The notes: generated by a model from the letters alone, not told the origin. A stretch of 20,000 nucleotides of DNA from an uncultured virus (IMG/VR IMGVR_UViG_3300013981_000002) (IMGVR_UViG_3300013981_000002); one strand, 5' to 3'; counted from the first letter of the stretch, positions 3,125 through 20,000 are shown. Translations and numbers: made by a program.

Positions 3125-3160
3125 AAAAAAACGGGGGACACCCGTATGGATGTCCCCCGT
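3125..3160 (-). terminator. T-phi-like intrinsic terminator after the major capsid gene
   Basis: Minus strand ACGGGGGACATCC-ATAC-GGGTGTCCCCCGT followed by a T run. Same position as T7 T-phi. Confidence 0.9.
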
Positions 3161-3263
3161 AGATGGAGAGAGATTGGAGTTGGGACGGGAGCCGACTTGA
3201 CGATCTAGGTCTGCGGTGCCAGCTACACGACCGGGTACTCTATGAGTCCCGTCCCGGTGGAAC

Positions 3264-6910: not shown

Positions 6911-7090
6911 TTAGCGGGCGCGGTGCTCCATCTGCTCGACCTTCCGCAGCGCCTTGAGCCGGAGGATCAGGCGGCGCTCGCCCTGCCGGAGCAGGAACTC
7001 CTCCTTCGGCTGGGCGGGGTCGTAGATCACTTCGGGGTGCAGTTCGTCCAGGAGGTCGATCAGGTCGTAGGAGTGCAGAGGGATTTGCAT
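6911..7090 (-). CDS. Hypothetical protein (59 aa), first gene of the late operon
   Basis: Manual translation MQIPLHSYDLIDLLDELHPEVIYDPAQPKEEFLLRQGERRLILRLKALRKVEQMEHRAR. Strong SD AGGAG. Confidence 0.8.
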   Translation of the reverse strand: MQIPLHSYDLIDLLDELHPEVIYDPAQPKEEFLLRQGERRLILRLKALRKVEQMEHRAR

Positions 7091-7114
7091 AGAACTCCTG
7101 GGTTATGAATAGGT

Positions 7115-7134
7115 GGGGAAACTGACGTTTCCCC
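7115..7134 (-). promoter_or_regulatory. 5' leader hairpin of the predicted late transcript
   Basis: GGGGAAAC-GTCA-GTTTCCCC directly after the promoter motif. Resembles the T7 phi10 leader stem-loop. Confidence 0.7.
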
Positions 7135-7151
7135 CGATGATGACTACTAAA
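7135..7151 (-). promoter_or_regulatory. Predicted phage RNAP late promoter (P3) TTTAGTAGTCATCATCG
   Basis: Intergenic copy of the 17-nt motif, running into a G tract, upstream of the structural genes. Confidence 0.8.
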
Positions 7152-7154
7152 CCC

Positions 7155-7691
7155 CTAGAGTCGGGCCAGCGATTCCGCGACCATCCGCAGGCGGTGGATC
7201 GGGCCGTTGTTGTCGATCACGGTGTCGATCAGGTCGCCGTGGACGCCTGCCTCCGAGGCATGCGCCGAGACCGTAGCCGCGCTGTCGCGGAGCACCTGGA
7301 CCACCTGGCCGCCCCACTCACGGATGAACTGCGCCTCGTTGTCGAAGCGAACGTCCGACACCACGACGCCAGCAGCGCCGTCGCGGCGGGCCTGACGGAT
7401 CTTCTGCGCGACAACCTTGACCCACAGGTCGCGGTCGATCATTTCGCGGCCCCACTCGGTGCCTACGGTCTGCATCAGGCGGCGCGGGGTCTGCCCGTTG
7501 AGCCAGTCGAGCGGCTCCTCCTTGAGCGGGCCGTCCTCCATCGCGGACACCGGCAGGCCGGTGATGTCCGCCACGAAGGCGCGGATCGGGGCCGCGAAGG
7601 ACAGCTTCACGAAGCCGTGGTCGCTGACCAGGAACTCGGCCAGGGTGTCTTTGCCGCTACGGGCGCGGCCGGTGATTCCGATGATCTTCAT
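7155..7691 (-). CDS. Deoxynucleoside monophosphate kinase
   Basis: 178 aa. P-loop GRARSGKDT, TPRRLMQTVGTEWGR, SDVRFDNE and H.SE motifs. SD GGAG. Confidence 0.9.
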   Translation of the reverse strand: MKIIGITGRARSGKDTLAEFLVSDHGFVKLSFAAPIRAFVADITGLPVSAMEDGPLKEEPLDWLNGQTPRRLMQTVGTEWGREMIDRDLWVKVVAQKIRQARRDGAAGVVVSDVRFDNEAQFIREWGGQVVQVLRDSAATVSAHASEAGVHGDLIDTVIDNNGPIHRLRMVAESLARL

Positions 7692-7702
7692 GGGGACTCC
7701 AG

Positions 7703-7730
7703 AAAAGGAAAGGCCCGCACGAGGCGGGCC
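7703..7730 (-). terminator. Intrinsic terminator-like hairpin before dNMP kinase
   Basis: GGCCCGC-CTCGT-GCGGGCC followed by TTTCCTTTT on the minus strand. Confidence 0.65.
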
Positions 7731-7753
7731 GGGGGGGACTTGGGGGAGAGGCG

Positions 7754-7816
7754 CTACCAGCCGGGACGGCCGTGCAGCGCCAGGTTGATGGCGAGGGCCA
7801 GCAGCTTCGGACGCAT
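7754..7816 (-). CDS. Possible 20-aa micro-ORF MRPKLLALAINLALHGRPGW
   Basis: TGATG coupling to the upstream gene and GC3-rich codons. Very short, so uncertain. Confidence 0.4.
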   Translation of the reverse strand: MRPKLLALAINLALHGRPGW

Positions 7817-8022
7817 CAGGCGAAGCACCGGGCGATCAGCCAGGCCGCACCAGCAGCGCCGACAGCGGCCGGCCACAGCTTGACGCGGCCAGCCGAGCGG
7901 TACAGGGCGCGTTCGAGGGTGTTGAGGCTGCGCCACCACAGCCAGGCGGCACCGTAGGCGACGAAGGCGAACAGCACGGCCAGCACGGCGACGATGGTGA
8001 TGAACAGGATCAGGGTTTCCAC
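7816..8022 (-). CDS. Small membrane protein (68 aa, two hydrophobic segments), holin candidate
   Basis: GTG start with AAGGA upstream. Hydrophobic stretches LILFITIVAVLAVLFAFVAYGAAWLWW and LWPAAVGAAGAAWLIA. Confidence 0.6.
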   Translation of the reverse strand: METLILFITIVAVLAVLFAFVAYGAAWLWWRSLNTLERALYRSAGRVKLWPAAVGAAGAAWLIARCFA

Positions 8023-8843
8023 AGCTTCACTTCCTTGGTCTTGGGGTTGTAGTCGCCGTAGCGCAGGATTCGCGCGAGGCGTGCTTGGCGGATCGCATCG
8101 TGCTTCGACAGCGGCTCGGTGCCGCCGCGGGGGATGCGGGTGGTGTAGGTGGTGACGACGGTGTTCCACAGCGCGCCGAGGTGCTCCTCGACGGACGCAT
8201 CGCGGTACGCCTCGTGGATGGGCATGAGCAGCTCATCCGCGCCCTTGTGGCCGATGCCGGGGAAGCCGGGGTAGTTGTCCACCTGGTCACCCGTGAGCAC
8301 CTGCTTCATCCAGAACAGGTCAGCGTCGTGAGCCGAGATTGGCCGGACGCCCACGTCGGGACGGTTGGGGTTGTAGAGACGGATGCCGGGGATCGTCTGC
8401 ATGTCCTTGTCGATGGACACGACGATGCGGCTGCCTGGCGCGCGCTTCGGATTCGGGTGCGAGGCCAGCAGCCCCAGCACGTCGTCACCTTCCAGGTTCT
8501 CGATCTCCACGATCTTGTCGCCGAACTCGTCGTAGACGAACTCGTCGAGCACGTACCACAGGGCAGGCTTGTCCTTGCTGGCACGGTTGAGCTTGTAGGT
8601 CGGGTCGATGTCCTTGCGGAAGTTGTGCTTCTTGCAGGACAGGGCCAGCAGGTAATCACGCGCGCCGAACTTCTCGACGATCTCGTCGATGTAGTCCTCC
8701 AGCTTCGCCTTCGCGCGCTCGGGCTGGATCGCTTCGACCTTGTTGCCGTCGCCGTTCCAGTCGATGTTCGCGGTGTTCGAGAACGCGAGCTGGTAGCGCA
8801 GCACATCGGCGTCGATCAGTAGCAGGGGGCCGCGCTTGTTCAT
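8010..8843 (-). CDS. 5'-3' exonuclease (T7 gp6-like)
   Basis: 277 aa from MNKRG (ATGA overlap). LLIDAD, NFRK.I.P.YK.NR, LEGDD.LG, SIDKD..TIPG and GD.VDNYPGFPGIG motifs. Confidence 0.93.
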   Translation of the reverse strand: MNKRGPLLLIDADVLRYQLAFSNTANIDWNGDGNKVEAIQPERAKAKLEDYIDEIVEKFGARDYLLALSCKKHNFRKDIDPTYKLNRASKDKPALWYVLDEFVYDEFGDKIVEIENLEGDDVLGLLASHPNPKRAPGSRIVVSIDKDMQTIPGIRLYNPNRPDVGVRPISAHDADLFWMKQVLTGDQVDNYPGFPGIGHKGADELLMPIHEAYRDASVEEHLGALWNTVVTTYTTRIPRGGTEPLSKHDAIRQARLARILRYGDYNPKTKEVKLWKP

Positions 8844-8989
8844 GCGTCCACCCACTGCCATCCCAGGAACGCCAGCGCGAACCAGCGGTGCAGCCAGTTC
8901 GGACGCTCCCGGACCTGCACGAAGAAGTTGCCGCCAATGACCCAGGAACCGGCCGCCTGCGGTGGCCGATAGGTGACGTAGGAAGTCAT
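8840..8989 (-). CDS. Small Trp-rich hypothetical protein (49 aa)
   Basis: Manual translation MTSYVTYRPPQAAGSWVIGGNFFVQVRERPNWLHRWFALAFLGWQWVDA. ATGA overlaps at both ends. Confidence 0.7.
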   Translation of the reverse strand: MTSYVTYRPPQAAGSWVIGGNFFVQVRERPNWLHRWFALAFLGWQWVDA

Positions 8990-9297
8990 GGCCGCTTCTC
9001 CGGGTGGCGCTCATACCACGCCTGTAGCTCGGCGGCGTAGCGCTTCATTCCGGCCTGGTACTCCGGGCCGTCGCCGAGCGGGTACTCGTGCTCGTCGCAC
9101 ACGAAGTCGGTGGTCGGGATGGTGTACGGAATCTGCGTGCAGGAGTTCCCCGTACACATCGACTGCCACATGATGATGTAGGAGTTCTCGCTGTGCCCTT
9201 TCAGGCACGAGCCATAGTCCGCACTCGGCGGCCAGGGCTTCATATCGCACGCAGCGAGGCCAGCACACAGCGCCAGGATCAGGAGAGCGCGCTTCAT
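8986..9297 (-). CDS. Predicted lipoprotein (103 aa)
   Basis: Signal peptide II MKRALLILALCAGLAA-C, with four more Cys in the mature part. ATGA overlap with the upstream gene. Confidence 0.8.
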   Translation of the reverse strand: MKRALLILALCAGLAACDMKPWPPSADYGSCLKGHSENSYIIMWQSMCTGNSCTQIPYTIPTTDFVCDEHEYPLGDGPEYQAGMKRYAAELQAWYERHPEKRP

Positions 9298-9542
9298 ACC
9301 ATGCTCTCGTGTACGGCGACCCAGCACTTCTCGCTAACGCGGCGGATGAAGTAGGTCGCGGTGCTCCACTCCACGGGGCGCAGCATGCGCTCGGTGCAGC
9401 ACGGGCACTTGGCGTTGTAGGCATGAACCTCGGGCTGGTGTTCGAGCACAGCCACGCGGTAGGTGGTACACGGATCGATCACGCGGACATCGCCGTCAGC
9501 GGGGCCGCCAATGAAATGCACGCGAAGCCGGTTCTCGTTCAT
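9294..9542 (-). CDS. Hypothetical protein (82 aa) with GGP.DG motif and CPCC
   Basis: MNENRLRVHFIGGPADG... with ATGA overlaps at both ends. Confidence 0.7.
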   Translation of the reverse strand: MNENRLRVHFIGGPADGDVRVIDPCTTYRVAVLEHQPEVHAYNAKCPCCTERMLRPVEWSTATYFIRRVSEKCWVAVHESMV

Positions 9543-9802
9543 CGGTTCGATTCCTTGAGGACTTCCAAGGCGCTCGCTTTGTCGGCGTTGCAACGCTGGA
9601 GGCCGTCCTCGGCGTTGCCGCCGAAGCGGTAGAGGTCGTAGGTGGTGGTGGTCGGGTCAGCCATCACGGCGTCGAGTGAGGAGTGCGTGCCCTCAATGAC
9701 GGTCGGCTGGAGGAACTGCTCCGGCACGACTTTCGAGGTGTGCGCGGCGCAGCTCGTCAGGAATGCGGCGAGACAGGTAATCGCCAGTTTCCGGGTCAGC
9801 AT
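9539..9802 (-). CDS. o-spanin (Rz1-like lipoprotein, 87 aa)
   Basis: MLTRKLAITCLAAFLTS-C lipobox and C-terminal LQRCNADK motif. Starts inside the i-spanin gene in another frame, with GGAG upstream. Confidence 0.8.
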   Translation of the reverse strand: MLTRKLAITCLAAFLTSCAAHTSKVVPEQFLQPTVIEGTHSSLDAVMADPTTTTYDLYRFGGNAEDGLQRCNADKASALEVLKESNR

Positions 9803-10058
9803 TTGCTGCAATCTCCACAGAGCGGTTGGTGGTGGCGCGGGCGTTCCGCAGCGCTGCATCGAAGGCAGAGCGGCGCACGGCTTCGCGGTTGAGGGTCTCG
9901 ACGGTCTGCTTGAGGTCGGCCAGTTCCTTTGCCGACTCCTCCAGCTCCGTCACGCGCTGGGCCATTGCGGTGTACTTCCAGGCTGCGAAGCCGCCAGCCG
10001 CGAGCGCGGCAACGACCAGCAGCGCCGCGAGGGCGCGCAGGATGTTGGTTGGGTTCAT
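9693..10058 (-). CDS. i-spanin (Rz-like)
   Basis: N-terminal TM helix, coiled coil and C-terminal YLSRRIPDEL. Overlapped by a lipoprotein ORF. Confidence 0.8.
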   Translation of the reverse strand: MNPTNILRALAALLVVAALAAGGFAAWKYTAMAQRVTELEESAKELADLKQTVETLNREAVRRSAFDAALRNARATTNRSVEIAANADPETGDYLSRRIPDELRRAHLESRAGAVPPADRH

Positions 10059-10378
10059 CGGTTCTCTTGGACGTAACAGGCGACTCGCAGAAGCTCCGAG
10101 GGAGTCGCGTCGGACTTGATCTGATTCGCGCGTGCGGAGATCACGCGCACGTTGCCCCGGACGTAGCCGAGGTCAGGTTCGATGCGGTCGAGCGTGGGTG
10201 AGTTGGGGCCTTGGGCCTTGCGCCCGACAGCGCGGTACAGCGGGATGCCCAGCGCCGGGCAGAAGTCGGGGACCGCGATGTCGTCCGACGTGAGGTCGAA
10301 CGGCAGTCCCTTTCTTGCTGCCCGGCGTTTCGCTTGGCGCACCAGGGCGAGTGCAATGTCCCGCTTGCCGCGGATCAG
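10055..10378 (-). CDS. HNH-like (beta-beta-alpha) endonuclease
   Basis: AKRRA..KGLPFDLT, CP.LG, PTLDRIEPDLGYVRGNVRVIS.RAN.IK motifs. Start uncertain (CTG 10378 or TTG 10393). Confidence 0.75.
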   Translation of the reverse strand: MIRGKRDIALALVRQAKRRAARKGLPFDLTSDDIAVPDFCPALGIPLYRAVGRKAQGPNSPTLDRIEPDLGYVRGNVRVISARANQIKSDATPSELLRVACYVQENR

Positions 10379-12213
10379 TGCGTCTCCGCCCAATTCCTTC
10401 CGATCTTGAACTCGCCATCGAGCGGACAGCGGAAGCCGAAGTGGTCGCCAGCTTTGCGGATGGCGGCCTGGGCGGTCTTGCCCACGAACTCGGCCTTGTC
10501 CTCGTCCACTTCGATCTGCCACTCATCGTGGACGTTGGCGAGGAACTCGTAGTGGACGCCCGGCACCAGCCCTGCGGCTTGCAGGTCGGCGTCGAGGATC
10601 ACCAGCGCCTTCTTCATCACCAGCGCACCGGCCGACTGGAGCAGGGTGTTGAGCGCAGCGTGGTCGCTGCGGATGTGCAGCTTCCGACCGTCGAGGCCAA
10701 TCAGGTATCCCTTTTCGGCCGCGCGCTTCTTGACCCCGCGCACCAGCTTCTCCAGCGCAGGCAGTCCGGCCAGGAACTTCGAGCGGAGCTTCGCGCCGGC
10801 CTGTCGTCCCTTGCCCACGATGGAGCCGAGCTTCGCGTCGCCTGCCCCGTAGAGGAAGGCGTAGATGAAGGTCTTGGCGTTGTCGCGGGTGGGCAGTCCA
10901 GCCGCCGCCTGGTTGACCGAGTGGATGTCGCCTTCGAGGATGACTTTGGCGTACTCACCGCCATCGTGCTTCGCCATGAAGTGCGCCAGGCAGCGCAGCT
11001 CCAGCCCCGAGGCGTCCGCGCCGACCTGGAGCTTCCCTGTCGGGACGCAGAACAGAGAGCGGCATTCCTTGCCGTAGGGCACGCCGCACTTCGGCACCTG
11101 GGCGATGTTCGGCTTAGAGTGCGTCATGCGGCCGGTCACCGCCGCGTTCTGATTCACGCTGCCGTGGATTCGGCCATCTTTCTTGATGGCCTTGAGCCAT
11201 GCCTCGTCGCCCTCGGCAAGCTGGCCGAGACGCTTGTTGACGATGAAGTGCTCCAGCAGGAGCGGGATGATCGGGAACTTGAGCGCGCCCAGGACATCTT
11301 CGTCGATCTTCGGCTGGCCCTTCTCGGTGAACTCCTGCGGTTGCCAGCCATACATCGCGGTCAAGCGGTCAGCGATGTGCTGGCGACTCGCCGGGTTGAA
11401 CACAACGTCCTTGTAGGTCGTGACCTCCACGCCCTTGACGTAGCCGCGGCGCTTGTCGTCGCGCTTCGGTACGAACTTGCGCTTCACCACCTTCCACGGC
11501 GGGATGACCTTGCGCAGCTCGGCCTCCAGCGCGGTGCGCCGGGACACGAGGACGCACTCCAGCTCGCGTGCCTTCTCCTGATCGAACAGGTAGCCGTAGC
11601 GCTGCTGACGCGAGAGGATCGGCGCGACGGCCTGCTCCAGCTCAATGGCCTCGGTTGGGAGGCCCTTGCTCATCAGCAATGCGAACAGGGCTTGGGTGAC
11701 CGCAACGTCCTGGTCGCAGTAGTCGTCCATTTCCTGAGACCACTGCGCCCAGGGGTCGAGGCCGCGTGCGACCATCTGCGCCGCGTAGTCGCCTTTCCAG
11801 CGACCGAGGCGGTAGCCCCATGCTTCGAGGGAATGGCGGCCGATCAGCTTGCCCGGCAACACCGGGTTCGCTCCCTGCTTCTTGCGGGCTTTGAAGTCGC
11901 GGTCCTTGAGGTCCGGGTAGACCAGCGTGGACATCAGCAGCGTGTCGAAGTACGCCTGGACCTTGAAGTCCGGGAACACCTTGGCGATAGCCGGAATGTC
12001 GAATCCGGCGATGTTGTGGCCGACAACGCGCGTGGCCTTCTTGAGCCTCTCGACGGCCTGACGGACTGTCATTTCGCCCGTGCCGTGATCGTTGGCGGAC
12101 AAGATGGGACCGCGCGGTGCGCCGGTCTCATCTACCTCTTGGAGGGAAATGCAGTGGATCGTGTCAAGTTCGTCGAGGAGGCCATTGGTCTCGCAGTCGA
12201 ATACGAGGATCAA
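10375..12213 (-). CDS. DNA polymerase family A with 3'-5' exonuclease (T7 gp5-like)
   Basis: FDCETNG, GHNIAGFD, HSLEAWG, TGRMTH, DASGLELRCLAH, RDNAKTFIYAFLYG and VHDEWQ motifs. TTG start with GGAGG SD. Confidence 0.97.
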   Translation of the reverse strand: MILVFDCETNGLLDELDTIHCISLQEVDETGAPRGPILSANDHGTGEMTVRQAVERLKKATRVVGHNIAGFDIPAIAKVFPDFKVQAYFDTLLMSTLVYPDLKDRDFKARKKQGANPVLPGKLIGRHSLEAWGYRLGRWKGDYAAQMVARGLDPWAQWSQEMDDYCDQDVAVTQALFALLMSKGLPTEAIELEQAVAPILSRQQRYGYLFDQEKARELECVLVSRRTALEAELRKVIPPWKVVKRKFVPKRDDKRRGYVKGVEVTTYKDVVFNPASRQHIADRLTAMYGWQPQEFTEKGQPKIDEDVLGALKFPIIPLLLEHFIVNKRLGQLAEGDEAWLKAIKKDGRIHGSVNQNAAVTGRMTHSKPNIAQVPKCGVPYGKECRSLFCVPTGKLQVGADASGLELRCLAHFMAKHDGGEYAKVILEGDIHSVNQAAAGLPTRDNAKTFIYAFLYGAGDAKLGSIVGKGRQAGAKLRSKFLAGLPALEKLVRGVKKRAAEKGYLIGLDGRKLHIRSDHAALNTLLQSAGALVMKKALVILDADLQAAGLVPGVHYEFLANVHDEWQIEVDEDKAEFVGKTAQAAIRKAGDHFGFRCPLDGEFKIGRNWAETH

Positions 12214-12225
12214 CGGCGGTCCTCC

Positions 12226-12876
12226 TTACGGGTAGCCGTGGTTGGTTACGGGGATTGCGCGGACGCGGCGGCGGGCGCGGAGGATGTACTCCGGCTCGGG
12301 GGCCTTCGGCGGCGTGTGGACGCCCTGCGGCGCGTGGCCGGGGAAGTCGTCGTCCTCGAAGAGTTCGCCCTGCTCGGGCTGGTCGGGATGCAGCGTGTAG
12401 CCGTAGTCCTCGACGTAGTGCGTGATGCGGCGGATGGTGCGCTCGGTGCCGTTGTTGTTCAGCACGAACAGCAGCTTCTCCGATGCGTCGGCAACCGCGC
12501 CTTCGAGGGATACGACCACCACCTCGTCGGTGCTGGGTTCGTAGATGGCGACATGGGCGCAGCACCGCAGATCGAACCGGGCGCAGTGCTCGTGCGGCGT
12601 ACCAAACTCGAAGCCGATCAGGCTCACGAGGTGACCCTCGGGCGAGCGGAAGTTGCGGATGCCGTTCGGAGCGGCCTCGCTGGTCCAGTCGCTACGGCCG
12701 CTCAGGTACGCGGCCACGTAGGTGTAGCTCGCAAGTGACACGAAGAAGCAGTCGATGTCCTTGATTTCGGTCCCGTCGTAGAACGCGCGCAGGCTTCCGC
12801 CACCCAGGATCACCAGGTGGCGGACTTCGGCCGGCAACACGTCGAACAGGGACCGAGCGTGTTGCTCGGCAGTCAT
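12226..12876 (-). CDS. Nucleotidyltransferase (pol-beta superfamily, CCA/poly(A) polymerase head-like)
   Basis: GGGSLR...KDIDCF signature and downstream RFDL. SD AAGGGA. Confidence 0.7.
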   Translation of the reverse strand: MTAEQHARSLFDVLPAEVRHLVILGGGSLRAFYDGTEIKDIDCFFVSLASYTYVAAYLSGRSDWTSEAAPNGIRNFRSPEGHLVSLIGFEFGTPHEHCARFDLRCCAHVAIYEPSTDEVVVVSLEGAVADASEKLLFVLNNNGTERTIRRITHYVEDYGYTLHPDQPEQGELFEDDDFPGHAPQGVHTPPKAPEPEYILRARRRVRAIPVTNHGYP

Positions 12877-12886
12877 GGTTGGTCCC

Positions 12887-13135
12887 TTAGCGGATCAGGT
12901 TGGTGAAGCGCTCGGCGACGCGCAGGGCGCGCTCGGCTTCTTCCTCGTGCTCGTCGGCCTGCGAGTGCAGGACATCGGCCTTGTCGCGCAGCGTCGAGGC
13001 GGTGGCGATGCGGTCGGCGCTGATCTTGAACAGCTTGTCCACCTGGCCCTCCAGAACCTTCACCACGTCGGTCACGGTGTCCTTGCGGAACGGAGCGGTC
13101 AGCAGGTCGATTGCGATTGCGACGATCTCTTTCAT
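12887..13135 (-). CDS. Helical/coiled-coil hypothetical protein (82 aa; positionally gp4.3-like)
   Basis: SD GAGGA, ATGA overlap, Ala/Glu-rich helix. Confidence 0.7.
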   Translation of the reverse strand: MKEIVAIAIDLLTAPFRKDTVTDVVKVLEGQVDKLFKISADRIATASTLRDKADVLHSQADEHEEEAERALRVAERFTNLIR

Positions 13136-13323
13136 TGGGGTAGTTCCTCGGCTTTGATGTGGATGACCACGCGCCGCCCAGGCTTGCCGTACATGACACG
13201 GCAGGCTTGGTCGGAGCGGGGGAGTTGGTAGGGGAGAACGAGGCTCTCAGCGAAGGAGAGCGGCGCATCAGCTGGGATGAAGCCGACGACCGAGCGGCCG
13301 TCAGTAGTCGGAGGTGGATACAT
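13132..13323 (-). CDS. Hypothetical protein (about 63 aa)
   Basis: MYPPPTTDGRSVVGFIPADAPLSF... fills the gap between the helicase and the next gene. Start uncertain. Confidence 0.5.
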   Translation of the reverse strand: MYPPPTTDGRSVVGFIPADAPLSFAESLVLPYQLPRSDQACRVMYGKPGRRVVIHIKAEELPQ

Positions 13324-14932
13324 CGGATGACTCGTCGGCGAAGTCGCCGTATTCGCCCGGAGCATCTGCATTGAGCAGGCGGCCGGATGCGTGGTCGTAG
13401 CTGTAGTAGAGAACCTGGCCGTTCGACTGGCCGGTGAAGCGATCCTTGAGGACACGGAAGGTCGTGCAGTTGCGCTCGGCCTCGTTCTCGGCCTGCGTAT
13501 TGCGCTCCAGGCCAAACGCGAAGTGCGTCCAGAAGCCAATCGCGCGGCTGCCCTTGAAGTGACGGAGCATCACGCGCCCGCCTTCCTCGTGGGGCTTGCC
13601 TTCCGGCGTGGCGAGGTGCGAGACCAGGTAGATGCAGATGAGGTGGCGCTGCGCGAACTGCGCGATCTTCGCCATCGTGTCCTCCAGCATCTTCCGCTCG
13701 TCCTCGGCACCGGCCGCGAACGACGTAAGGTTGTCGAGCACGATGTGCTTGACGCCCTCGGCGACGACCATGTGGGCCATCTTGGCTTCGATCACGTCCC
13801 ACTCGGACGAGCCGAAGTGGTCGTAGATGAACACCTGGCCCTTGTCGAGAATCTCGAACGCGGCTTCCAGTTCCTCCTGCGTCCAGCTCCCATCGGGAAC
13901 GTGGAAGCGGCGGCCCGCGACCTTGCCTGCCATGCGCTTCGCCGTCTCGACCGGCTGCTGCTCCAGGAAGAACAGGCCAACACGGTCGCCGGTTTCCTGC
14001 GCGATGAAGGCTGCTTCCTCCATCAGCCAGTCGGTCTTGCCGATGCCGGTGCCCGCGCCGAAGGTGTAGACCTCGCCATACCGCTTGCCGTAGGTCAGCG
14101 CGGTGAGGCGCGGATCGTGCCAGGGCATGCCCATCGAGACGGGCTTGAGTGCCTTCTCCTTGAGGGAGCCGAACGTCACCACGCCATCGGGGCGCTTGGT
14201 CTGCGCTTCGTAGATGGCGCGAGTGATCGCCTCGGCGTCGCCGCGCTGGAGCAGCTCGTTCGGGTCTTTCGCGGGGAGCTGTGCGATCTTGGCCTTGCCG
14301 GGAGTCAGCAGCAGCGCCACTTCCTGCGCGGCGGCCTGGCCCGGTTCGTCCATATCGAACATGAGCACGACCTCGTCGAAGCCATTGACCCACTCCAGCT
14401 CGCGCTTGATGGACTTGGCTGCGGCTTGTGCCCCGTTCGGGACGGACACCACCGGCCAGCGGAGGCCGAGTGCCTGCGCCACGGAGAGCGCATCAATCTC
14501 GCCTTCGGTGATGACGAGGCGTCGCCCCGGTTCGTAGAGGTGCTGGCCGAACAGCCCGCACGCCTTCGAGTCGCCGATGAACGAGAACTTCTTGTCGGGG
14601 TAGCGGAGCTTCTGCGCGACGATGCCGCCATCGCGCTTGTAGTTGGCGATCTGCACGGTCTTGCCGTGCTTGTCCTTGCCGATCCAGTAGCCGTACTTAC
14701 GGCATGCTTCCTCAGTGATACCGCGCTTCGCCAGGGCTTGCGGTTCACCCTCCGCAAAGTCGCTCATGGTTTTCCTGCTGGTGGGTTGAGAGACCTCTTC
14801 GCCTTCGGCTGGCTCGTAGTGACCGCAGCCGAAGCAGTAGCCGTGCCCGTCGCTGTAGCGCGCAAGGTTGTCCTTGCTGCCGCAGTTCGGACACGGCTCT
14901 TTGTGGAGGTATTCGGAGTCAGCGCTTTGCAC
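13301..14932 (-). CDS. DNA primase-helicase (T7 gp4-like)
   Basis: Zn finger CPNCGSKD...YCFGC, TOPRIM ITEGEIDA and FDMDEPG, Walker A GAGTGIGKT, LVSHL and LKDRFTG. Confidence 0.97.
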   Translation of the reverse strand: MQSADSEYLHKEPCPNCGSKDNLARYSDGHGYCFGCGHYEPAEGEEVSQPTSRKTMSDFAEGEPQALAKRGITEEACRKYGYWIGKDKHGKTVQIANYKRDGGIVAQKLRYPDKKFSFIGDSKACGLFGQHLYEPGRRLVITEGEIDALSVAQALGLRWPVVSVPNGAQAAAKSIKRELEWVNGFDEVVLMFDMDEPGQAAAQEVALLLTPGKAKIAQLPAKDPNELLQRGDAEAITRAIYEAQTKRPDGVVTFGSLKEKALKPVSMGMPWHDPRLTALTYGKRYGEVYTFGAGTGIGKTDWLMEEAAFIAQETGDRVGLFFLEQQPVETAKRMAGKVAGRRFHVPDGSWTQEELEAAFEILDKGQVFIYDHFGSSEWDVIEAKMAHMVVAEGVKHIVLDNLTSFAAGAEDERKMLEDTMAKIAQFAQRHLICIYLVSHLATPEGKPHEEGGRVMLRHFKGSRAIGFWTHFAFGLERNTQAENEAERNCTTFRVLKDRFTGQSNGQVLYYSYDHASGRLLNADAPGEYGDFADESSDVSTSDY

Positions 14933-15098
14933 GCTCCACGGACCACATGCGCTTGCGGTAGGAAATGCCGAGGCGACGGTTCAGCGCACCCTTGACGGTG
15001 CGGCCCAGGCCGCGGAACGGCTTGTCGGCGCTCGCCCATGCGCGCTCGAAAGCCAGGCGCATCGCGGACGGAATGACGGTGGTGGCGGTGTTGGTCAT
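14919..15098 (-). CDS. Small basic hypothetical protein (59 aa)
   Basis: Manual translation MTNTATTVIPSAMRLAFERAWASADKPFRGLGRTVKGALNRRLGISYRKRMWSVERAKR. SD GGAG and ATGA overlap. Confidence 0.65.
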   Translation of the reverse strand: MTNTATTVIPSAMRLAFERAWASADKPFRGLGRTVKGALNRRLGISYRKRMWSVERAKR

Positions 15099-15481
15099 GC
15101 GTTCTTCTCCAGCAGGAACTTGGTGAATGCGGCGACTTCTTCGGTCGCATCGTTTGCGTCGAGGCCCAGCTCGTCGGTGCAGTAGTTGCGGTACAGCTGG
15201 AGCAGCGCATCGACGCGGTACTGCTTCGGAGCGCGGCGCGCTTCCAGGAGCGGGGCCTTGCTGCGGCGCTGACGGCGCGACAGGCGATAGCGCGTGTACC
15301 GCTGCCCCGAGGCGTCCTCGCAGGTCTGCGTTTCGATCTCGAAGCCAGTAGCACGCAGCTCATCGACGCGCGAGGCGAGGCGGCGGATGCGGTAGACGCC
15401 TTCGGCCTGCCACGAGGTCAGGTGCGAGTGGCGACGCAGGTGATCCAGGACGACCTGGGTTTGCGGGGGCAGCGGTTTCAC
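15095..15481 (-). CDS. Winged helix-turn-helix protein
   Basis: Q...VL.HL.....LT..QA...Y.I.RLASRV.ELR..G..I.T........YTRYRL pattern. SD AGGAG before GTG. Confidence 0.75.
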   Translation of the reverse strand: MKPLPPQTQVVLDHLRRHSHLTSWQAEGVYRIRRLASRVDELRATGFEIETQTCEDASGQRYTRYRLSRRQRRSKAPLLEARRAPKQYRVDALLQLYRNYCTDELGLDANDATEEVAAFTKFLLEKNA

Positions 15482-15492
15482 GTTGGGTTCTC

Positions 15493-15855
15493 CTATCGAG
15501 GGAAGTCAGGTGCCCACACGACGGGCTTGCCGTAGGCGGCGAGCAGGCGTCGCAGCGCGGCGTGTTGGGCTTCGGTGAAGTTGTCCTCGGGCTGCATGGC
15601 GTCGTTGACGCCGCCCAGGAGGCAGACTTGGTATGCGGATTGGTTGTGCTTACCGGCGAGAGCGCCGGGCTGATTTAGCGGGCGACCGTCGTAGATCGAG
15701 CCGTCACGTTCGATGACGAAGTGGACGGCGATCTTCGAGTAGCCCTGCGAGCGGTGCAGGCGTGCGAGTTCCTCGCCGGTCGTGACCTGCTCGGGGCGGG
15801 TCATGCTGGCGAGGACGAACAGCGCCTCTACCGATTCCAGAGGTTTGAGGCGCAC
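15493..15855 (-). CDS. T7 lysozyme (gp3.5, amidase-fold) homolog, apparently catalytically dead
   Basis: HFVIERDG, GR, VCLLGG and NFTEAQ..AL align to T7 lysozyme, but the Zn and catalytic residues are absent. Confidence 0.85.
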   Translation of the reverse strand: MRLKPLESVEALFVLASMTRPEQVTTGEELARLHRSQGYSKIAVHFVIERDGSIYDGRPLNQPGALAGKHNQSAYQVCLLGGVNDAMQPEDNFTEAQHAALRRLLAAYGKPVVWAPDFPR

Positions 15856-16293
15856 TTAGAGTTTGTAGAGGTGGACTTCGGTGCGTGGTTCTTCGTCCGG
15901 CTGCGCCCAGCGCTTACCGGAGAGCAGCCACATGACTTGCTTGTCGTCGGCCCAATAGCCGGTGGCTTTGGTCACAACGTCCATCGGCCCCTTGGCGAGG
16001 TTGTCCACGTCGCCCTTGGGAAACGCGGCCTTCGAGGTCTTGGCGCGTTTGCATACCGCGATGATGACTACTAAAACCGGATCGGTCGGCGATAGGTCCA
16101 GATCACCGGCTGGCAGATGCTTCTCTGCCGCTTCCTTCCAGGTCTTGTAGGTCTTGCCGTAGTAGACGCCCCAGCGCGATACCTTCGGGCGCGAGGCGGG
16201 CACCGGGTCGAACGGGAACGTGAGGGAGGCCAAGTGCTTGGCCCCCCTCGCGGTGTCCACGATGACCGACAGCGGATCAGTAGTCGCCGTCAT
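15856..16293 (-). CDS. rusA: RusA-family Holliday junction resolvase
   Basis: PVPASRPKV, GDVDNLAKGPMD and WADDKQV match the RusA DxDNxxKxxxD and DDxQ motifs. ATG at 16293 with GAGG SD. Confidence 0.85.
   Translation of the reverse strand: MTATTDPLSVIVDTARGAKHLASLTFPFDPVPASRPKVSRWGVYYGKTYKTWKEAAEKHLPAGDLDLSPTDPVLVVIIAVCKRAKTSKAAFPKGDVDNLAKGPMDVVTKATGYWADDKQVMWLLSGKRWAQPDEEPRTEVHLYKL
16059..16075 (-). promoter_or_regulatory. Predicted phage RNAP promoter (P2) inside rusA
   Basis: Exact copy of TTTAGTAGTCATCATCG, using codons TTA GTA that are rare in this GC-rich genome. Confidence 0.72.
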
Positions 16294-16942
16294 CGCCCTC
16301 GTCGTCGGAGTCGCTGTCGTCGTCCGAGTCGTCATCGCTGTCGCTGAACGGCGCGCTGTCGTCGGCCTCGTATCCGTCCTCCTCGCCGAAGCCGTAGTCC
16401 TTGGCGTTGCGCTGGCCGAACTCGACCAGTTCGATCACCTGGACGGCGACCATGTAGCAGGTCAGGTAGAACTTCTTGGCCGATTCGACGAACGAACCAC
16501 CGATCTCGTAGGAGACCTTGAGTTCGCTGCCGCCGCCGATCTGCGGCGGGTTGTCGATCTTCTTGCCGCGGGCGTCGAAGATGTCCGGGCGCATGGTGAA
16601 CTTCTTGCCGGTGCGCTTGCTGACGCCGCTGGCCTTCATCTTGAACTTCACCAGCACGCGGCCGGTGTCATCGCCGTTCTCGTCGGTTTCTTCGGTGAAC
16701 ACCGGGGCCACTTCGGCACCCTTCTTCTTCTTCGGGTTCTCGCTCAGGAACTCCTGGAACAGCTCGTCGCGCCGGGTTTCCAGCTTCTTCGCCAGCGCCT
16801 TGAAGTCCTTGTCGTTCGGGTCGAACGCCAGGCTCACGGTGTATTCGCCTTCCGGCTTGAACTTGGTGTCCGGTTCGTTCAGTCGCGGCCACACGGCGGT
16901 GCCCTTCGGGGAGACGAATCGTTCGCGCTTCTTGGTTGCCAT
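16277..16942 (-). CDS. Single-stranded DNA-binding protein (T7 gp2.5-like)
   Basis: SPKG.A.WP.L..PD, KFKM.AS and IGGGSELKV motifs, with a long acidic tail ending in an aromatic residue (DGDY). Start at ATG 16942 (TGATG). Confidence 0.92.
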   Translation of the reverse strand: MATKKRERFVSPKGTAVWPRLNEPDTKFKPEGEYTVSLAFDPNDKDFKALAKKLETRRDELFQEFLSENPKKKKGAEVAPVFTEETDENGDDTGRVLVKFKMKASGVSKRTGKKFTMRPDIFDARGKKIDNPPQIGGGSELKVSYEIGGSFVESAKKFYLTCYMVAVQVIELVEFGQRNAKDYGFGEEDGYEADDSAPFSDSDDDSDDDSDSDDEGDDGDY

Positions 16943-17100
16943 CAGTTGTCGGTCTCGTAGTTGGTCGGGAGATAGATGCCCGCTCGCCACAGGTCGGCGG
17001 CGGCGGTCAGCGGGGTGTCGGCGGAAATGCCGAAGGCTTCGTCGATGTCGAAGCCGACGAGCGCCTCGTCGATGAAGGCGTCGGTGATCGGGTCACGCAT
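16942..17100 (-). CDS. Small acidic hypothetical protein (52 aa)
   Basis: MRDPITDAFIDEALVGFDIDEAFGISADTPLTAAADLWRAGIYLPTNYETDN. TAATG and TGATG coupling at the two ends. Confidence 0.7.
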   Translation of the reverse strand: MRDPITDAFIDEALVGFDIDEAFGISADTPLTAAADLWRAGIYLPTNYETDN

Positions 17101-17384
17101 TACGGGTAGTGCGGTTTCAGCTCGCGCTCCGCGTAGCGGCGCACGGCGTTGAGGGTGTTGACCTGCCGGTAGCGGCAGTCCTGCTCCATGCGCGAGACGA
17201 CCCGCAGCACTTCCATCGGATCGAGGCCGAGCACTTCGCAGAAGTTCTTGAAGGCGCACGCCAGGCCGATCACCTGATCGGCCGGGTGACCGAGGGATTG
17301 CACGCTGTCGATCACGACGAAAGCGCCGCGTGCGGCGCTCTCGGCAGAACGTGAGTGCAGTCCGTCGATGACGCGATCACGCAC
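17100..17384 (-). CDS. Hypothetical protein (94 aa)
   Basis: GTG start with GGAG upstream, typical codon usage, coupled to neighbours. Confidence 0.75.
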   Translation of the reverse strand: MRDRVIDGLHSRSAESAARGAFVVIDSVQSLGHPADQVIGLACAFKNFCEVLGLDPMEVLRVVSRMEQDCRYRQVNTLNAVRRYAERELKPHYP

Positions 17385-17520
17385 CTGCGTGCAGCTCCGT
17401 CATGCGGTGCTTGAACTCCTCGACCGTGCCGTGTTCGGCCGGGTTGTAGATGCCGAGGACCACACCGAAGTGGTCTTGGGCAACGTAGGTGTTCAGTGCG
17501 TGCTGGTAGTTGATGCTCAT
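17377..17520 (-). CDS. Hypothetical protein (47 aa)
   Basis: Manual translation MSINYQHALNTYVAQDHFGVVLGIYNPAEHGTVEEFKHRMTELHAGA. Fills the gap after RNAP. Confidence 0.65.
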   Translation of the reverse strand: MSINYQHALNTYVAQDHFGVVLGIYNPAEHGTVEEFKHRMTELHAGA

Positions 17521-17564
17521 GTGGATGTTCTCGTTTGGGGTATCAATTGCCAAAGGGGGATGGA

Positions 17565-20000
17565 CTAGGCAAAGAAGTAGCGCGACTCCAGCACCAGGCT
17601 GAGGTCCAGGTCGCCGTGCGGCGGGAGTGGTGGAAGTTTCTCTGCCGCTTCTGGCGGGAGCTGCTCGACGAGTTGCTGTCGGAAGTCGGCCAGTACGTCG
17701 CCGCTGTACTGATCGACGAACGCCTGCCGGAGCGCGGCGGCGAGGATTGCTGCCTTGCCCGCGTGTGTACCGTAGGAGTCATGGATCATTGCGAACGACT
17801 CGATGCCGTTCTCTGCCGCGAGGCAGGTGGTCAGCATCATGTGGCTGGCGTCACAGGAGTGGACGAAGTTCGGGCTGATCCCGAGGGTCTGCCTGCGACG
17901 GTCGAGCTTCGTACCGCCGATGTTGACTACTAAATTCGTCAGTCGGCCGCCCAGGTGGGCCTGGACGCGCACGCCTTCCTCCTCGCGGTACTCCTGGAGG
18001 ACCGGGAAGCCAGCGGGGGTCGTCCAGCTCACCGGCAGGTCGGCCGACGAGGCGACCTTAGAGGCATCGCGCAGCCAGTCCATCGCCGCGCGGGCCGCGA
18101 TCACGACCTCGCCGATGCACTCCCACAGCAGGGTCGCCAGGTACTCGGCGGTTTCCCAATCGTCCTCCATGCCCAGCTTCTTGAACTTGGAGAGCACCTG
18201 GGCGCGCATGCCCGACTTCGTGACGCCGTAGGGCAGCGTCATCACCGGCTGCTTCACGATGTCGCGGGTGAGCTGGCCGTCCAGCTTGATCGCCAGCGGG
18301 TCGCCGCCCTCGGCACGGGCGCGGAGCTTCTCCTGCGCCACGTCCTTCACGCGCGAATAGATGTCGGCGGGCTTCGGCTGCGGGATCAGGTTGGTGGCTG
18401 CGCCGCCCACGGAGTCGCGGAGCATGGCCGAGAAGTTCTGGAGGCCGTTGCAGGAACCGTCGAGCGCGATGGGCAGATGGGAGACGTGATCGCGGCCGTT
18501 GAGGCTGTAGCCGAGCCACTCGAAGCACGCGGCCAGCGCGCAGAACGGGCTGTCGGCGTCCATCCAGAAGCGTTGGCCGTCCAGCGGATCGAGGGCGCTG
18601 TCGAGAATCTGCTCCTCGTGCTCGCGCACCCAGGCCACGCGCTTCTCGAACGACACCTTGTCCACGCCGAAGCAGTTGGCAACGTGGATGGCGAGCCAGT
18701 AGGCACCGTCCTCGCCGAGCGGCACGCCTTGGGCGAACGTCAGCAGGCCCTTGGCCGCATCATCACCCTGCGGGGTCAGCGTCGGGGGCAGGGGGTAGCA
18801 ACGGCCGCGGAAGTCGAGGTTGTGCGGGAAGTAGATCGCGGGGTACTCGGCGAACTTCTCCGCCAGGGCGATCTTCTGCGCGGCGGCGAGGCGGGTGGAC
18901 ACGCTGCGCGCATTGGCCTCGTAGACCTTGGCGCGGTCGCGCTTCCATTCCTTGAACTCGTCGGCGTGGTGCTCCTTGAAGTAGTCCGGGTCGGTCTCCA
19001 GCAGGGCAGGGCGGCTCGGCAGGTCCATCAGCTCGCGCTCCGGCAGCCCGGCGACACCGCCGCCTGCGTTCCACAGCTCGCGCATGACCTCCAGGACTGG
19101 CACGTTCACCTTCCAGGCGGTTGCCTGGATGGCATTGAGGGCCTGGTAGACGTTGGGCATATCGACCAGCGCCAGCTCGCGCTTGTAGGCGCGGTTGCGG
19201 GTACGCACAAGGTCCGCCCGGCCGCCGATGTCGGTCAGGTAGCCGCCGTCGCGGGGCGTGGTCCACGGACGGGGCGGGACGACCATCGGCATCAGCACCG
19301 GCTGGTACAGGGCGGCGCTGTCGTGGGCCTTGGTCAGCCAGTCGAGCACCTTCTGATTCCCGGCGATCAGCAGGTGGCGCTTGCCGCGCTCGGCCACGGT
19401 GACCAGCTCGACCAGTCCGGTCGCCTCGACGAACAGCTCGATGAGCTTCATGCCCACCAGCAGGGCGTCCTTGTCGGACAGGTAGAGGCGCTTGTCGTCC
19501 TCGGGGCTGAACTCGGCGTCGGCAACGACGTGCCGCATCACTGCGGTGGAATGCCGAGCCGAAGTGGACTTCTTGAGCTGCTCCTGGACGACCCGGTATA
19601 GGCCGGGATGCTTCTCGCGGAGCAGGGAGAAGTTGATCTCGTTGGCGACCTCGTGGCCCAGGGTGATCGCCACGGACACCGCCTTGCGGTGATCGGCGAC
19701 GAGCGCGTTGACGCAGGTGAAGCTGGTCAGATAGGCGAGGGCGTGGGGGTTCAGGTGGCGGATGAACTTGAGGGCGGCGTGGCGCTTGCCCGGCTTGCCG
19801 GTGTCGGCTTCGGCCACGAACGCCGCGATTGCGGCGGCGGTGGCGTCGATGCTCTCCAGGACCAGCTTGCGGCCGGGGCCGGTCTCGGCCTCCTGGCGCT
19901 GCTCCCTGATCTTCTCGTAGCGGGCAATGCCCAGGCTGGTGCTCTCCTTCTCCAGTTCGAGCTGGGCGGCGTGCAGGTCGTTCTCTTGCCAAGTCGTCAT
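17565..20000 (-). CDS. T7-type single-subunit DNA-directed RNA polymerase
   Basis: 811 aa. DFRGRCYP, LDGSCNGLQ, R.IVKQPVMTLPYG, PNFVHS.DASH, IHDSYG and C-terminal YFFA. The ATG lies at the window edge, so an upstream start cannot be excluded. Confidence 0.98.
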   Translation of the reverse strand: MTTWQENDLHAAQLELEKESTSLGIARYEKIREQRQEAETGPGRKLVLESIDATAAAIAAFVAEADTGKPGKRHAALKFIRHLNPHALAYLTSFTCVNALVADHRKAVSVAITLGHEVANEINFSLLREKHPGLYRVVQEQLKKSTSARHSTAVMRHVVADAEFSPEDDKRLYLSDKDALLVGMKLIELFVEATGLVELVTVAERGKRHLLIAGNQKVLDWLTKAHDSAALYQPVLMPMVVPPRPWTTPRDGGYLTDIGGRADLVRTRNRAYKRELALVDMPNVYQALNAIQATAWKVNVPVLEVMRELWNAGGGVAGLPERELMDLPSRPALLETDPDYFKEHHADEFKEWKRDRAKVYEANARSVSTRLAAAQKIALAEKFAEYPAIYFPHNLDFRGRCYPLPPTLTPQGDDAAKGLLTFAQGVPLGEDGAYWLAIHVANCFGVDKVSFEKRVAWVREHEEQILDSALDPLDGQRFWMDADSPFCALAACFEWLGYSLNGRDHVSHLPIALDGSCNGLQNFSAMLRDSVGGAATNLIPQPKPADIYSRVKDVAQEKLRARAEGGDPLAIKLDGQLTRDIVKQPVMTLPYGVTKSGMRAQVLSKFKKLGMEDDWETAEYLATLLWECIGEVVIAARAAMDWLRDASKVASSADLPVSWTTPAGFPVLQEYREEEGVRVQAHLGGRLTNLVVNIGGTKLDRRRQTLGISPNFVHSCDASHMMLTTCLAAENGIESFAMIHDSYGTHAGKAAILAAALRQAFVDQYSGDVLADFRQQLVEQLPPEAAEKLPPLPPHGDLDLSLVLESRYFFA
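17918..17934 (-). promoter_or_regulatory. Predicted phage RNAP promoter (P1) inside the RNAP gene
   Basis: TTTAGTAGTCAACATCG, 16/17 identical to P2 and P3. Confidence 0.7.

Follow-up and report, generated by a model that had tools for sequence, protein, structure and literature searches.

Phage-specific promoters have been mapped by Oxford Nanopore (ONT)-cappable-seq in LUZ100, a temperate-like T7 relative of Pseudomonas, and the same source outlines a class of temperate T7-like phages characterized by a MarR-like regulator, an integrase, and tRNA-Leu (PMC10134795). For T7-like phages in general, a natural covariation network between the single-subunit RNA polymerase (RNAP) and its promoter has been derived, in which specificity rests on very few loop positions and their partners at -11 to -8 of the promoter (Zhu et al., NAR 2025, PMC11880802). 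According to that study, R746, N748, R756, and Q758 are the hydrogen-bonding residues, the partner of position 746 is a C at promoter position 11 (-7) in 91% of natural pairs, position 748 couples to promoter positions 7 and 8 (-11 and -10), with N748 as a known -10/-11 determinant, and CACTA occupies -7 to -3 in more than 50% of T7-like promoters. Here, we analyzed a stretch of 20,000 nucleotides (nt) from an uncultured virus (IMG/VR IMGVR_UViG_3300013981_000002), referred to as the window, which we identify as the RNAP-to-tail-tube part of a ~43.5-kb T7-like prophage. A 17-nt motif, TTTAGTAGTCAWCATCG, recurs in this DNA, and its features indicate that it is very probably the cognate promoter of the prophage's own T7-like RNAP.

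The motif, its placement and its codon cost

Scanning the window with the motif revealed three exact copies, all on the minus strand:

17918..17934, minus strand: P1, TTTAGTAGTCAACATCG, inside the RNAP gene, 351 nt ahead of its stop codon
16059..16075, minus strand: P2, TTTAGTAGTCATCATCG, inside the gene of a RusA-like endonuclease, reading VLVVIIA
7135..7151, minus strand: P3, TTTAGTAGTCATCATCG, intergenic

No extra copy was found in the window with up to three mismatches allowed, the chance expectation was 0.01 per window, and none of 200 dinucleotide-preserving shuffles contained three matches. All three copies run in the same direction as the genes, every confident window gene lying on the minus strand. 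The motif has a G+C content of 35%, compared with 63 to 68% in the window, and its last base is G. Conservation stops at the limits of the 17 nt and does not reach into the flanks included in the initial annotation of this DNA; the descriptive claims of that annotation, namely three copies, a gene-coding orientation, an AT-rich sequence ending in G within a GC-rich genome, and rare TTA GTA codons forced in the same frame (LVV) by the two intragenic copies, were all borne out.

The copies stand at the starts of transcription modules, P1 at the class-II genes, P2 at the replication genes, and P3 at the portal and head genes. P2 precedes the amidase gene by 204 nt and, with it, the replication module, and P3 begins 3 nt past the stop codon of a deoxynucleoside monophosphate (dNMP) kinase gene, with the next ATG 45 nt beyond the end of the copy; two small open reading frames (ORFs) follow downstream of P3, and then the portal, scaffold, capsid, and tail genes.

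Both intragenic copies share the frame T-TTA-GTA-GTC, P1 being read as AAT TTA GTA GTC AAC ATC GGC (NLVVNIG). In 15 window genes, TTA accounts for 2 of 5,358 codons (500 of which encode Leu), both within P1 and P2, and GTA for 16 of the 386 Val codons in the same genes. Since the only two TTA codons sit in the intragenic copies, the DNA word has been kept against a strong codon bias.

The three copies are syntenic in a related Stenotrophomonas chromosome (G001), in the viral record G002, and in four Stenotrophomonas loci, all of which carry G and not A at motif position 7. Matches with up to one mismatch in the 4.4-Mb G001 genome were limited to the three syntenic copies; four further matches with three mismatches were located elsewhere, none had two or fewer, and a reversed-pattern control gave 0. 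A fourth, weaker copy, TAAAGTGGTCATCTTCG, occurs ~176 nt upstream of the RNAP ATG in G001-type relatives, at a place just past the window end, and the ~43.5-kb G001 element holds four copies in total. A consensus scan of this element and its surroundings, 72 kb in all (at least 9 of 11 fixed positions), detected no additional copy on the gene strand, weak late promoters being able to escape such a scan. These data indicated that the motif is a conserved, asymmetric 17-bp repeat, within the ~17- to 23-bp range of T7-like promoters, that is co-oriented with the genes and rare in the host genome.

The polymerase specificity loop and the base at -10

The partner that this motif would require is encoded in the window, together with the stretch of codons that concerns us here:

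17565..20000, minus strand: complete gene of a single-subunit T7-like RNAP of 811 amino acids (aa), with its ATG at 20000-19998
17937..17972, minus strand: codons for the variable stretch of the specificity loop, VRVQAHLGGRLT, placed by alignment with T7

The product matched the profile PF00940 with an E value of 1.7e-120 and T7 RNAP structures with 1.6e-141, and its motifs DGSCNGLQ, KxPVMTLPYG, and IHDSYGTH line up with T7, the catalytic-motif columns being conserved. Judged from its sequence, the cognate single-subunit RNAP carried by this element is apparently functional. In a MAFFT alignment with the RNAPs of T7, LUZ100, and Pasto, the window loop GVRVQAHLGGR-LTNLVVNIG lined up with T7 Q744...N764. 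The columns of T7 R746 (Arg) and G753 (Gly) were invariant; the loop Arg encoded at 17967-17969 falls in the R746 column and the Gln encoded at 17961-17963 in the N748 column, and the R756 and Q758 columns hold Leu/Glu/Lys and Asn, respectively, the Asn codon in line with Q758 being the one in which P1 starts. With the final G taken as +1, motif position 10 is a C at -7, which meets an Arg equivalent to R746 in the loop, and the variable motif position 7 becomes -10.

The residue in the N748 column changed together with the base at -10. Gln occurred with A in every copy of the window (3/3), L033 (3/3), and L022 (4/4); Arg occurred with G in G001, L015-18, L025, and L026 (4/4 copies each where covered) as well as in L032 (2/2); and Asn occurred with C in all three copies of L029. 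Thus, within the -11 to -8 segment, -10 covaries with the N748 column of the loop across nine elements and three states.

The more distant prophages and viral contigs in this comparison have RNAPs that are 58 to 88% identical, and their copies were found by loop-anchored and consensus scans, a loose-threshold de novo listing of repeats being too noisy. The four copies of L022 (RNAP 67% identical) all keep TTTAGTAGTCAW and the final G and vary at -4 to -1, those of L033 end in CATTG (3/3), and those of L032 end in CACTATTG (2/2). Lysobacter L019 (..ATAWAACAGTGGCTATAGAC), Dyella L021, L037, and L039 each possess a motif of their own, with copies both ahead of the RNAP gene and within its loop codons. 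In L030, a motif particular to that locus likewise occupies the loop codons, and a second copy of it lies ~1.2 kb downstream. The loop-anchored search gave no convincing second copy in 10 of 26 loci (L020, L027, L028, L031, L034-L036, and L040-L042); L038 begins inside the RNAP gene, and the search for upstream copies covered the other loci only. The position of P1 within the loop codons is conserved across the Stenotrophomonas, Lysobacter, and Dyella elements and is the most unusual feature of this system; the clade with its first downstream promoter in these codons also includes uncultured relatives.

When any base was allowed at position 7, an open search of viral and metagenome contigs returned 215 loci, mostly chance matches in low-G+C DNA. 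Five of these were in a loop context, and all five obey the same residue/base pairing but come from the same three lineages; no new loop/base state emerged from the contigs scanned. P3-type copies with C were present on three further contigs, and no RNAP C terminus was found on the long C-type contig G003 or on the fragments G004 and G005.

Of the 811 RNAP residues, 13 differ between the window and G001, 6 of them among loop residues 694-703, and at the DNA level 13 differences crowd into 17938-17970. At position 7 of P2 and P3, the single-nucleotide differences stand alone in otherwise near-identical DNA, with the closest neighboring differences at 15772/16093 and 7125/7155, respectively. In the variable stretch, the window loop DNA differs from that of L033 at 4 positions and from that of G001 at 13, and the L033 RNAP is overall 77% identical to the G001 RNAP used as the query, itself near-identical to the window's. 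The RNAP gene is mosaic at 17894-17978, being G001-like overall with loop DNA nearest to L033. Because the loop DNA is nearer to L033 while the RNAP as a whole is nearer to G001, this comparison suggests that a loop segment has been exchanged.

Proposed promoter activity, rival explanations and RNA data

The initial annotation had predicted a new RNAP/promoter pair, and this prediction gained support from the intact T7-like RNAP, the placement of the copies at module starts as in LUZ100, the R746/C-7 register, and the covariation at -10. In the mechanism we propose, the specificity loop of the RNAP, once made, would read about -12 to -5 in the major groove, with the Arg at the T7 R746 position contacting C/G at -7 and the residue at the T7 N748 position reading -10; the A+T-rich TTTA at -16 to -13 may act as an upstream contact, and transcription would start at or beside the final G. 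P1 would drive the small class-II genes and those of the single-stranded DNA-binding protein (SSB) and RusA, P2 the amidase, winged helix-turn-helix (wHTH), primase-helicase, DNA polymerase, and exonuclease genes, and P3 the head, tail, and lysis genes, with a terminator past the capsid gene attenuating the last of these units. Beyond the window, the fourth and weaker copy ahead of the RNAP gene would confer positive autoregulation. Two features belong to the predicted P3 unit:

7088..7134, minus strand: predicted leader of the P3 transcript, with a hairpin followed by the Shine-Dalgarno sequence AGGAG (7099-7095) and an ATG (7090-7088)
3131..3160, minus strand: strong terminator hairpin of 13 pairs with a T-run, past the major capsid gene and within the unit that P3 would drive

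The leader hairpin comprises 8 bp (GGGGAAAC/GTTTCCCC, 7134-7115) and begins at +2 if the start is the final G. The predicted fold of the leader has an energy of -14.4 kcal/mol (z = -1.83, with 11 of 200 shuffles equally stable) and is retained in G001 although the hairpin loop has changed. Beside the capsid terminator, 86 nt (3177-3262) are swapped for an unlike 35-nt stretch in the strain of RNA run X24 (see below), and the alignment of the window with G001 also breaks in this region.

One further gene in the window encodes a protein that could bind the motif in place of the RNAP:

15095..15481, minus strand: gene of a wHTH protein (HTH_39), candidate alternative binder of the motif

Dimers of wHTH and MarR proteins usually bind dyads. 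The motif has no dyad symmetry or paired half-sites, 4 of its 17 positions being self-complementary, and its copies are strictly co-oriented with the genes; it is very unlikely to be an operator through which a DNA-binding protein of the phage, be it the HTH_39 wHTH or the MarR-like product encoded next to the integrase, silences or times the transcription units. The initial annotation had named a wHTH binding site as its alternative, the wHTH gene does lie in the window's middle region, and MarR-type repressors have been proposed for temperate T7-like phages, with sites that flank the promoter ahead of the RNAP gene (PMC10134795). Against this, the wHTH does not covary with the motif: the window and G001 proteins differ only at T45A, the A-type L033 and L022 carry A45 as the G-type does, and A-type L033 and C-type L029 show nearly identical lists of differences from the window. 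Moreover, HTH_39 homologues are found at the same place in Pasto, and a DNA-binding protein in LUZ100, although the mapped LUZ100 promoters have another sequence. The six AGGTGAC(R)C boxes that immediately precede the fourth copy make a better operator candidate. The primary origin of T7 overlaps promoters, and this precedent, like the small number of copies, would suit a repeat with a role outside transcription, for instance in replication, recombination, or packaging, or a dispersed one that gene conversion maintains. We nevertheless regard such a repeat as extremely unlikely, as the copies are located at module boundaries, are strictly directional, and remain syntenic from genus to genus even as their sequence varies in step with the RNAP loop; we know of no replication, recombination, or packaging signal that tracks an RNAP specificity loop.

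A+T richness within a G+C-rich genome is a common trait of host promoters, and on that count the prophage could use the motif as a promoter for host RNAP or as a site for another host factor. The probability of this is next to negligible: no sigma-70-like pair of -35 and -10 hexamers (16- to 18-nt spacing) was found in the whole window, the rest of the 4.4-Mb host genome lacks the motif at up to two mismatches, the covariation is with the phage RNAP loop, and no sign of host RNAP activity, in the form of a rise in RNA depth past the copies, was seen in the lysogen X24, in which host RNAP is active. This RNA run derives from an uninduced lysogen with the G001-type allele and is the only informative one, with an ambiguous strandedness convention; X21 and X22 lack the element (12 and 46 partial reads, respectively), and X3 consists of contigs only. 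A phage promoter could also start elsewhere than at the final G, for instance in a register moved by ~3 nt, as in a naive AGTGG alignment with the Lysobacter motif AACAGTGGCTATAG, which ends in CTATAG 6 nt past AGTGG, whereas the window has 9 nt from AGTAG to G. We consider this shift highly improbable, given that the final G is kept in 4/4 L022 copies despite varied -3 to -1, that the L032 variant equals T7's -8 to -2 in the G-anchored register, and that the pairing of C-7 with the R746-equivalent Arg fits that register only.

Several observations weigh against the motif being a promoter of the prophage RNAP. Only 4 copies are present per ~43.5 kb, compared with 8 in LUZ100 and with the ~13 promoters predicted per T7-like genome (PMC11880802). 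The motif has CAWCA at -7 to -3 and not the common CACTA, and CATC at -4 to -1 and not TATA, so that the window lacks the combination of CACTA with an A+T-rich -4 to -1; CACTA is present in L032, and this feature is frequent but not strictly defining. The small copy number and the atypical bases at -5 to -1 stand out as the chief oddities of the promoter reading. In addition, the covariation consists of three states, with at least two switches, among related elements, and P1, because it directly adjoins the loop codons, does not vary independently of them. The viral fragments G004 (G004:C1 3699-3781) and G005 (G005:C1 4150-4232) carry tandem copies 66 nt apart, TTTAATGGTCATCATCG and TTTAGTAGTCATCATCG, which are unlike at positions 5 and 7, so that A and G at position 7 occur together in a single record, and neither fragment includes an RNAP gene; position 7 is thus not always uniform within an element. 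The z-score of the P3 hairpin is modest. Finally, RNA depth in X24 did not rise past the copies (P1, 2.4 vs 3.9; P2, 4.8 vs 8.3; P3, 4.6 vs 47.9), and no molecule ends were found at the copies among the 8 of 13 places listed. The RNAP gene itself was at background on both strands in this run; since it is silent, the lack of a rise reflects silence and is no test of the promoter, and it fits dependence on the phage RNAP.

The prophage and its relation to known systems

The gene order in the window is T7-like: RNAP, two small ORFs, T7-type SSB, RusA-like endonuclease, amidase, HTH_39 wHTH, primase-helicase, family-A DNA polymerase, 5'-3' exonuclease, dNMP kinase, portal, scaffold, major capsid, tail tube A, and nozzle. 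The RNAP has no near isolated relative in a set of 50,697 phage records, the closest RNAPs (from jiawei, Ralstonia phages, Caulobacter S2B, LUZ100, and Rhizobium phages) being only 37 to 43% identical. The G001 element is 97.6 to 98.3% identical to the window, and near-identical loci were found in Stenotrophomonas maltophilia and S. sepilia records. The boundaries of the prophage were read from G001:

G001:C1, about 1020226-1063795 (loci L043, L011, and L012): prophage bounded by tRNA-Leu sequences

At one end, a complete tRNA-Leu(tag) is followed by a tyrosine integrase (PF00589, E = 1e-16) and an ORF of 124 aa with a weak MarR_2 match (E = 0.002, below the cut-off); the interior contains early, lysis, terminase, and tail genes; and at the other end the RNAP gene adjoins a displaced 3' tRNA-Leu fragment, beyond which lie host clpP, clpX, and lon. 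The fragment and the full tRNA-Leu have a 17-nt direct repeat in common. On this gene content, we identify the element as a temperate T7-like podophage with a tRNA-Leu attachment site, and the integrase, the MarR-like neighbor (a weak match), the tRNA-Leu, and the T7-like order, all found in the G001 element, place it in the described temperate T7-like class.

The neighborhood of the RNAP gene appears to vary between strains, as the DNA upstream of it differs in L016 and L017, with a 272-nt-spaced repeat. The six AGGTGAC(R)C-type boxes mentioned above occupy L015 9786-9870 with a spacing of ~10 to 12 nt and end 5 nt ahead of the fourth copy; the array lies between the displaced tRNA-Leu fragment and the RNAP ATG, just beyond window end 20000, and is a candidate repressor operator over a putative autoregulatory promoter. 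GGTGAC words were also seen at the corresponding place upstream of the RNAP gene in L022. On a distant contig of a metagenome-assembled genome, a long array of 18-nt tandem repeats resembling GGTTYCGCAMAGGTCTYC is present at L023 5880-6290, ~300 nt downstream of where the RNAP match (39% identical) stops.

A separate segment of the window was transcribed in X24. Between 7338 and 9338 (especially 7816-8671), depth on one strand reached 190 to 260, compared with about 3 to 8 over most of the prophage; many molecule ends fell at 8159 and 8389, and 437 reads diverge from the window left of 7816. A small membrane-like ORF extends from 7816 to about 8010 on the minus strand. This looks like a strain-variable segment expressed in lysogeny, between the exonuclease and dNMP-kinase genes.

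The window may also be viewed as the product of a swap, because its RNAP is G001-like, its loop DNA is L033-like, and its dispersed promoters carry the matching base. We reasoned that the reader residue (the N748 equivalent) and a cognate promoter copy within ~60 bp could form a portable "specificity cassette," whose exchange would diversify the phages into orthogonal groups, a proposal that we put forward as doubtful. If it is true, the RNAP of a superinfecting relative would not fire the late genes of a resident prophage, and vice versa, and the cassettes would be a transcriptional analogue of heteroimmunity among co-circulating temperate T7-like phages. If the promoter assignment is confirmed, the motif and its RNAP would be a new T7-family pair native to a high-G+C host, and the natural three-allele series of Gln, Arg, and Asn with A, G, and C at -10 would offer a test of single-contact rules and a source of orthogonal parts. 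It would likewise show how transcription is laid out in a lineage of temperate T7-like prophages that is uncharacterised and recurs in Stenotrophomonas genomes, with four promoters, one of them autoregulatory, beside a candidate operator array, and a promoter overlapping the codons of the loop that reads it would physically couple promoter and polymerase evolution.

The SP6 and K11 promoters start with (A)TTTAGG and AATTAGG, respectively, and resemble the TTTAG at -16 to -12 here, whereas the core and the RNAP lineage differ. With the final G anchored at +1, the window motif matches the T7 consensus TAATACGACTCACTATAG, as given in PMC10134795, at 9 of 18 positions, sharing TA at -14/-13, A at -10, TCA at -8 to -6, and AT at -3/-2, and the L032 variant matches it at 10 of 18, including T7's -8 to -2. 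The motif had been called unfamiliar and unlike T7; its sequence is indeed distinct, with CATC at -4 to -1, but the matches to the T7 consensus temper that claim. As in T7, the R746 column is invariant, the N748 column holds the covarying residue, and a terminator follows the capsid gene; unlike in T7, the bases at -5 to -1 read WCATC where T7 has CTATA, other residues fill the R756 and Q758 columns, and the phage is temperate. Gene 1 of T7 contains no promoter, phi1.1A being located 26 nt after it.

The Gln-A, Arg-G, and Asn-C series is a 748/-10 covariation of the kind derived by Zhu et al. (PMC11880802). Their set comes from phage genomes, with no mention of prophages in general or of Stenotrophomonas prophages in the main text, and in the searched part of the supplementary dataset the 10-mers TTAGTGGTCA and TTAGTCGTCA were not found and TTAGTAGTCA occurred only in an unrelated record. 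Our literature search found no description of a T7-like prophage of Stenotrophomonas or of the motif; Boeckman et al. 2022, which was outside the search, may describe them.

The Pasto genome gave only chance-like matches, with no loop-embedded copy in the scan and no promoter motif, and LUZ100 has no annotated promoter inside its RNAP gene, its RNAP lacking the anchor motif of the loop scan; the loop-embedded copy is thus not a general trait. In LUZ100, phi1 is upstream of the RNAP gene, phi2/3 directly after it, phi4 where the amidase gene ends, another inside the DNA-binding protein gene, and phi6 ahead of the structural genes, with one or more later ones. Both systems have a conserved asymmetric motif of ~17 bp that is co-oriented with the genes, with some copies inside ORFs and at comparable places, as well as a MarR-like gene, an integrase, and tRNA-Leu, and the LUZ100 RNAP is 41% identical to the window's. 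They differ in sequence (AATTACCACACAG... in LUZ100), in number (the 8 LUZ100 copies against the 4 here), in the first downstream promoters, which lie past the RNAP stop codon in LUZ100 and inside the specificity-loop codons here, and in the starts, mapped experimentally in LUZ100 and predicted here. The motif is thus a known kind of promoter by this reading, and nothing in it overturns what is known of T7-like transcription.

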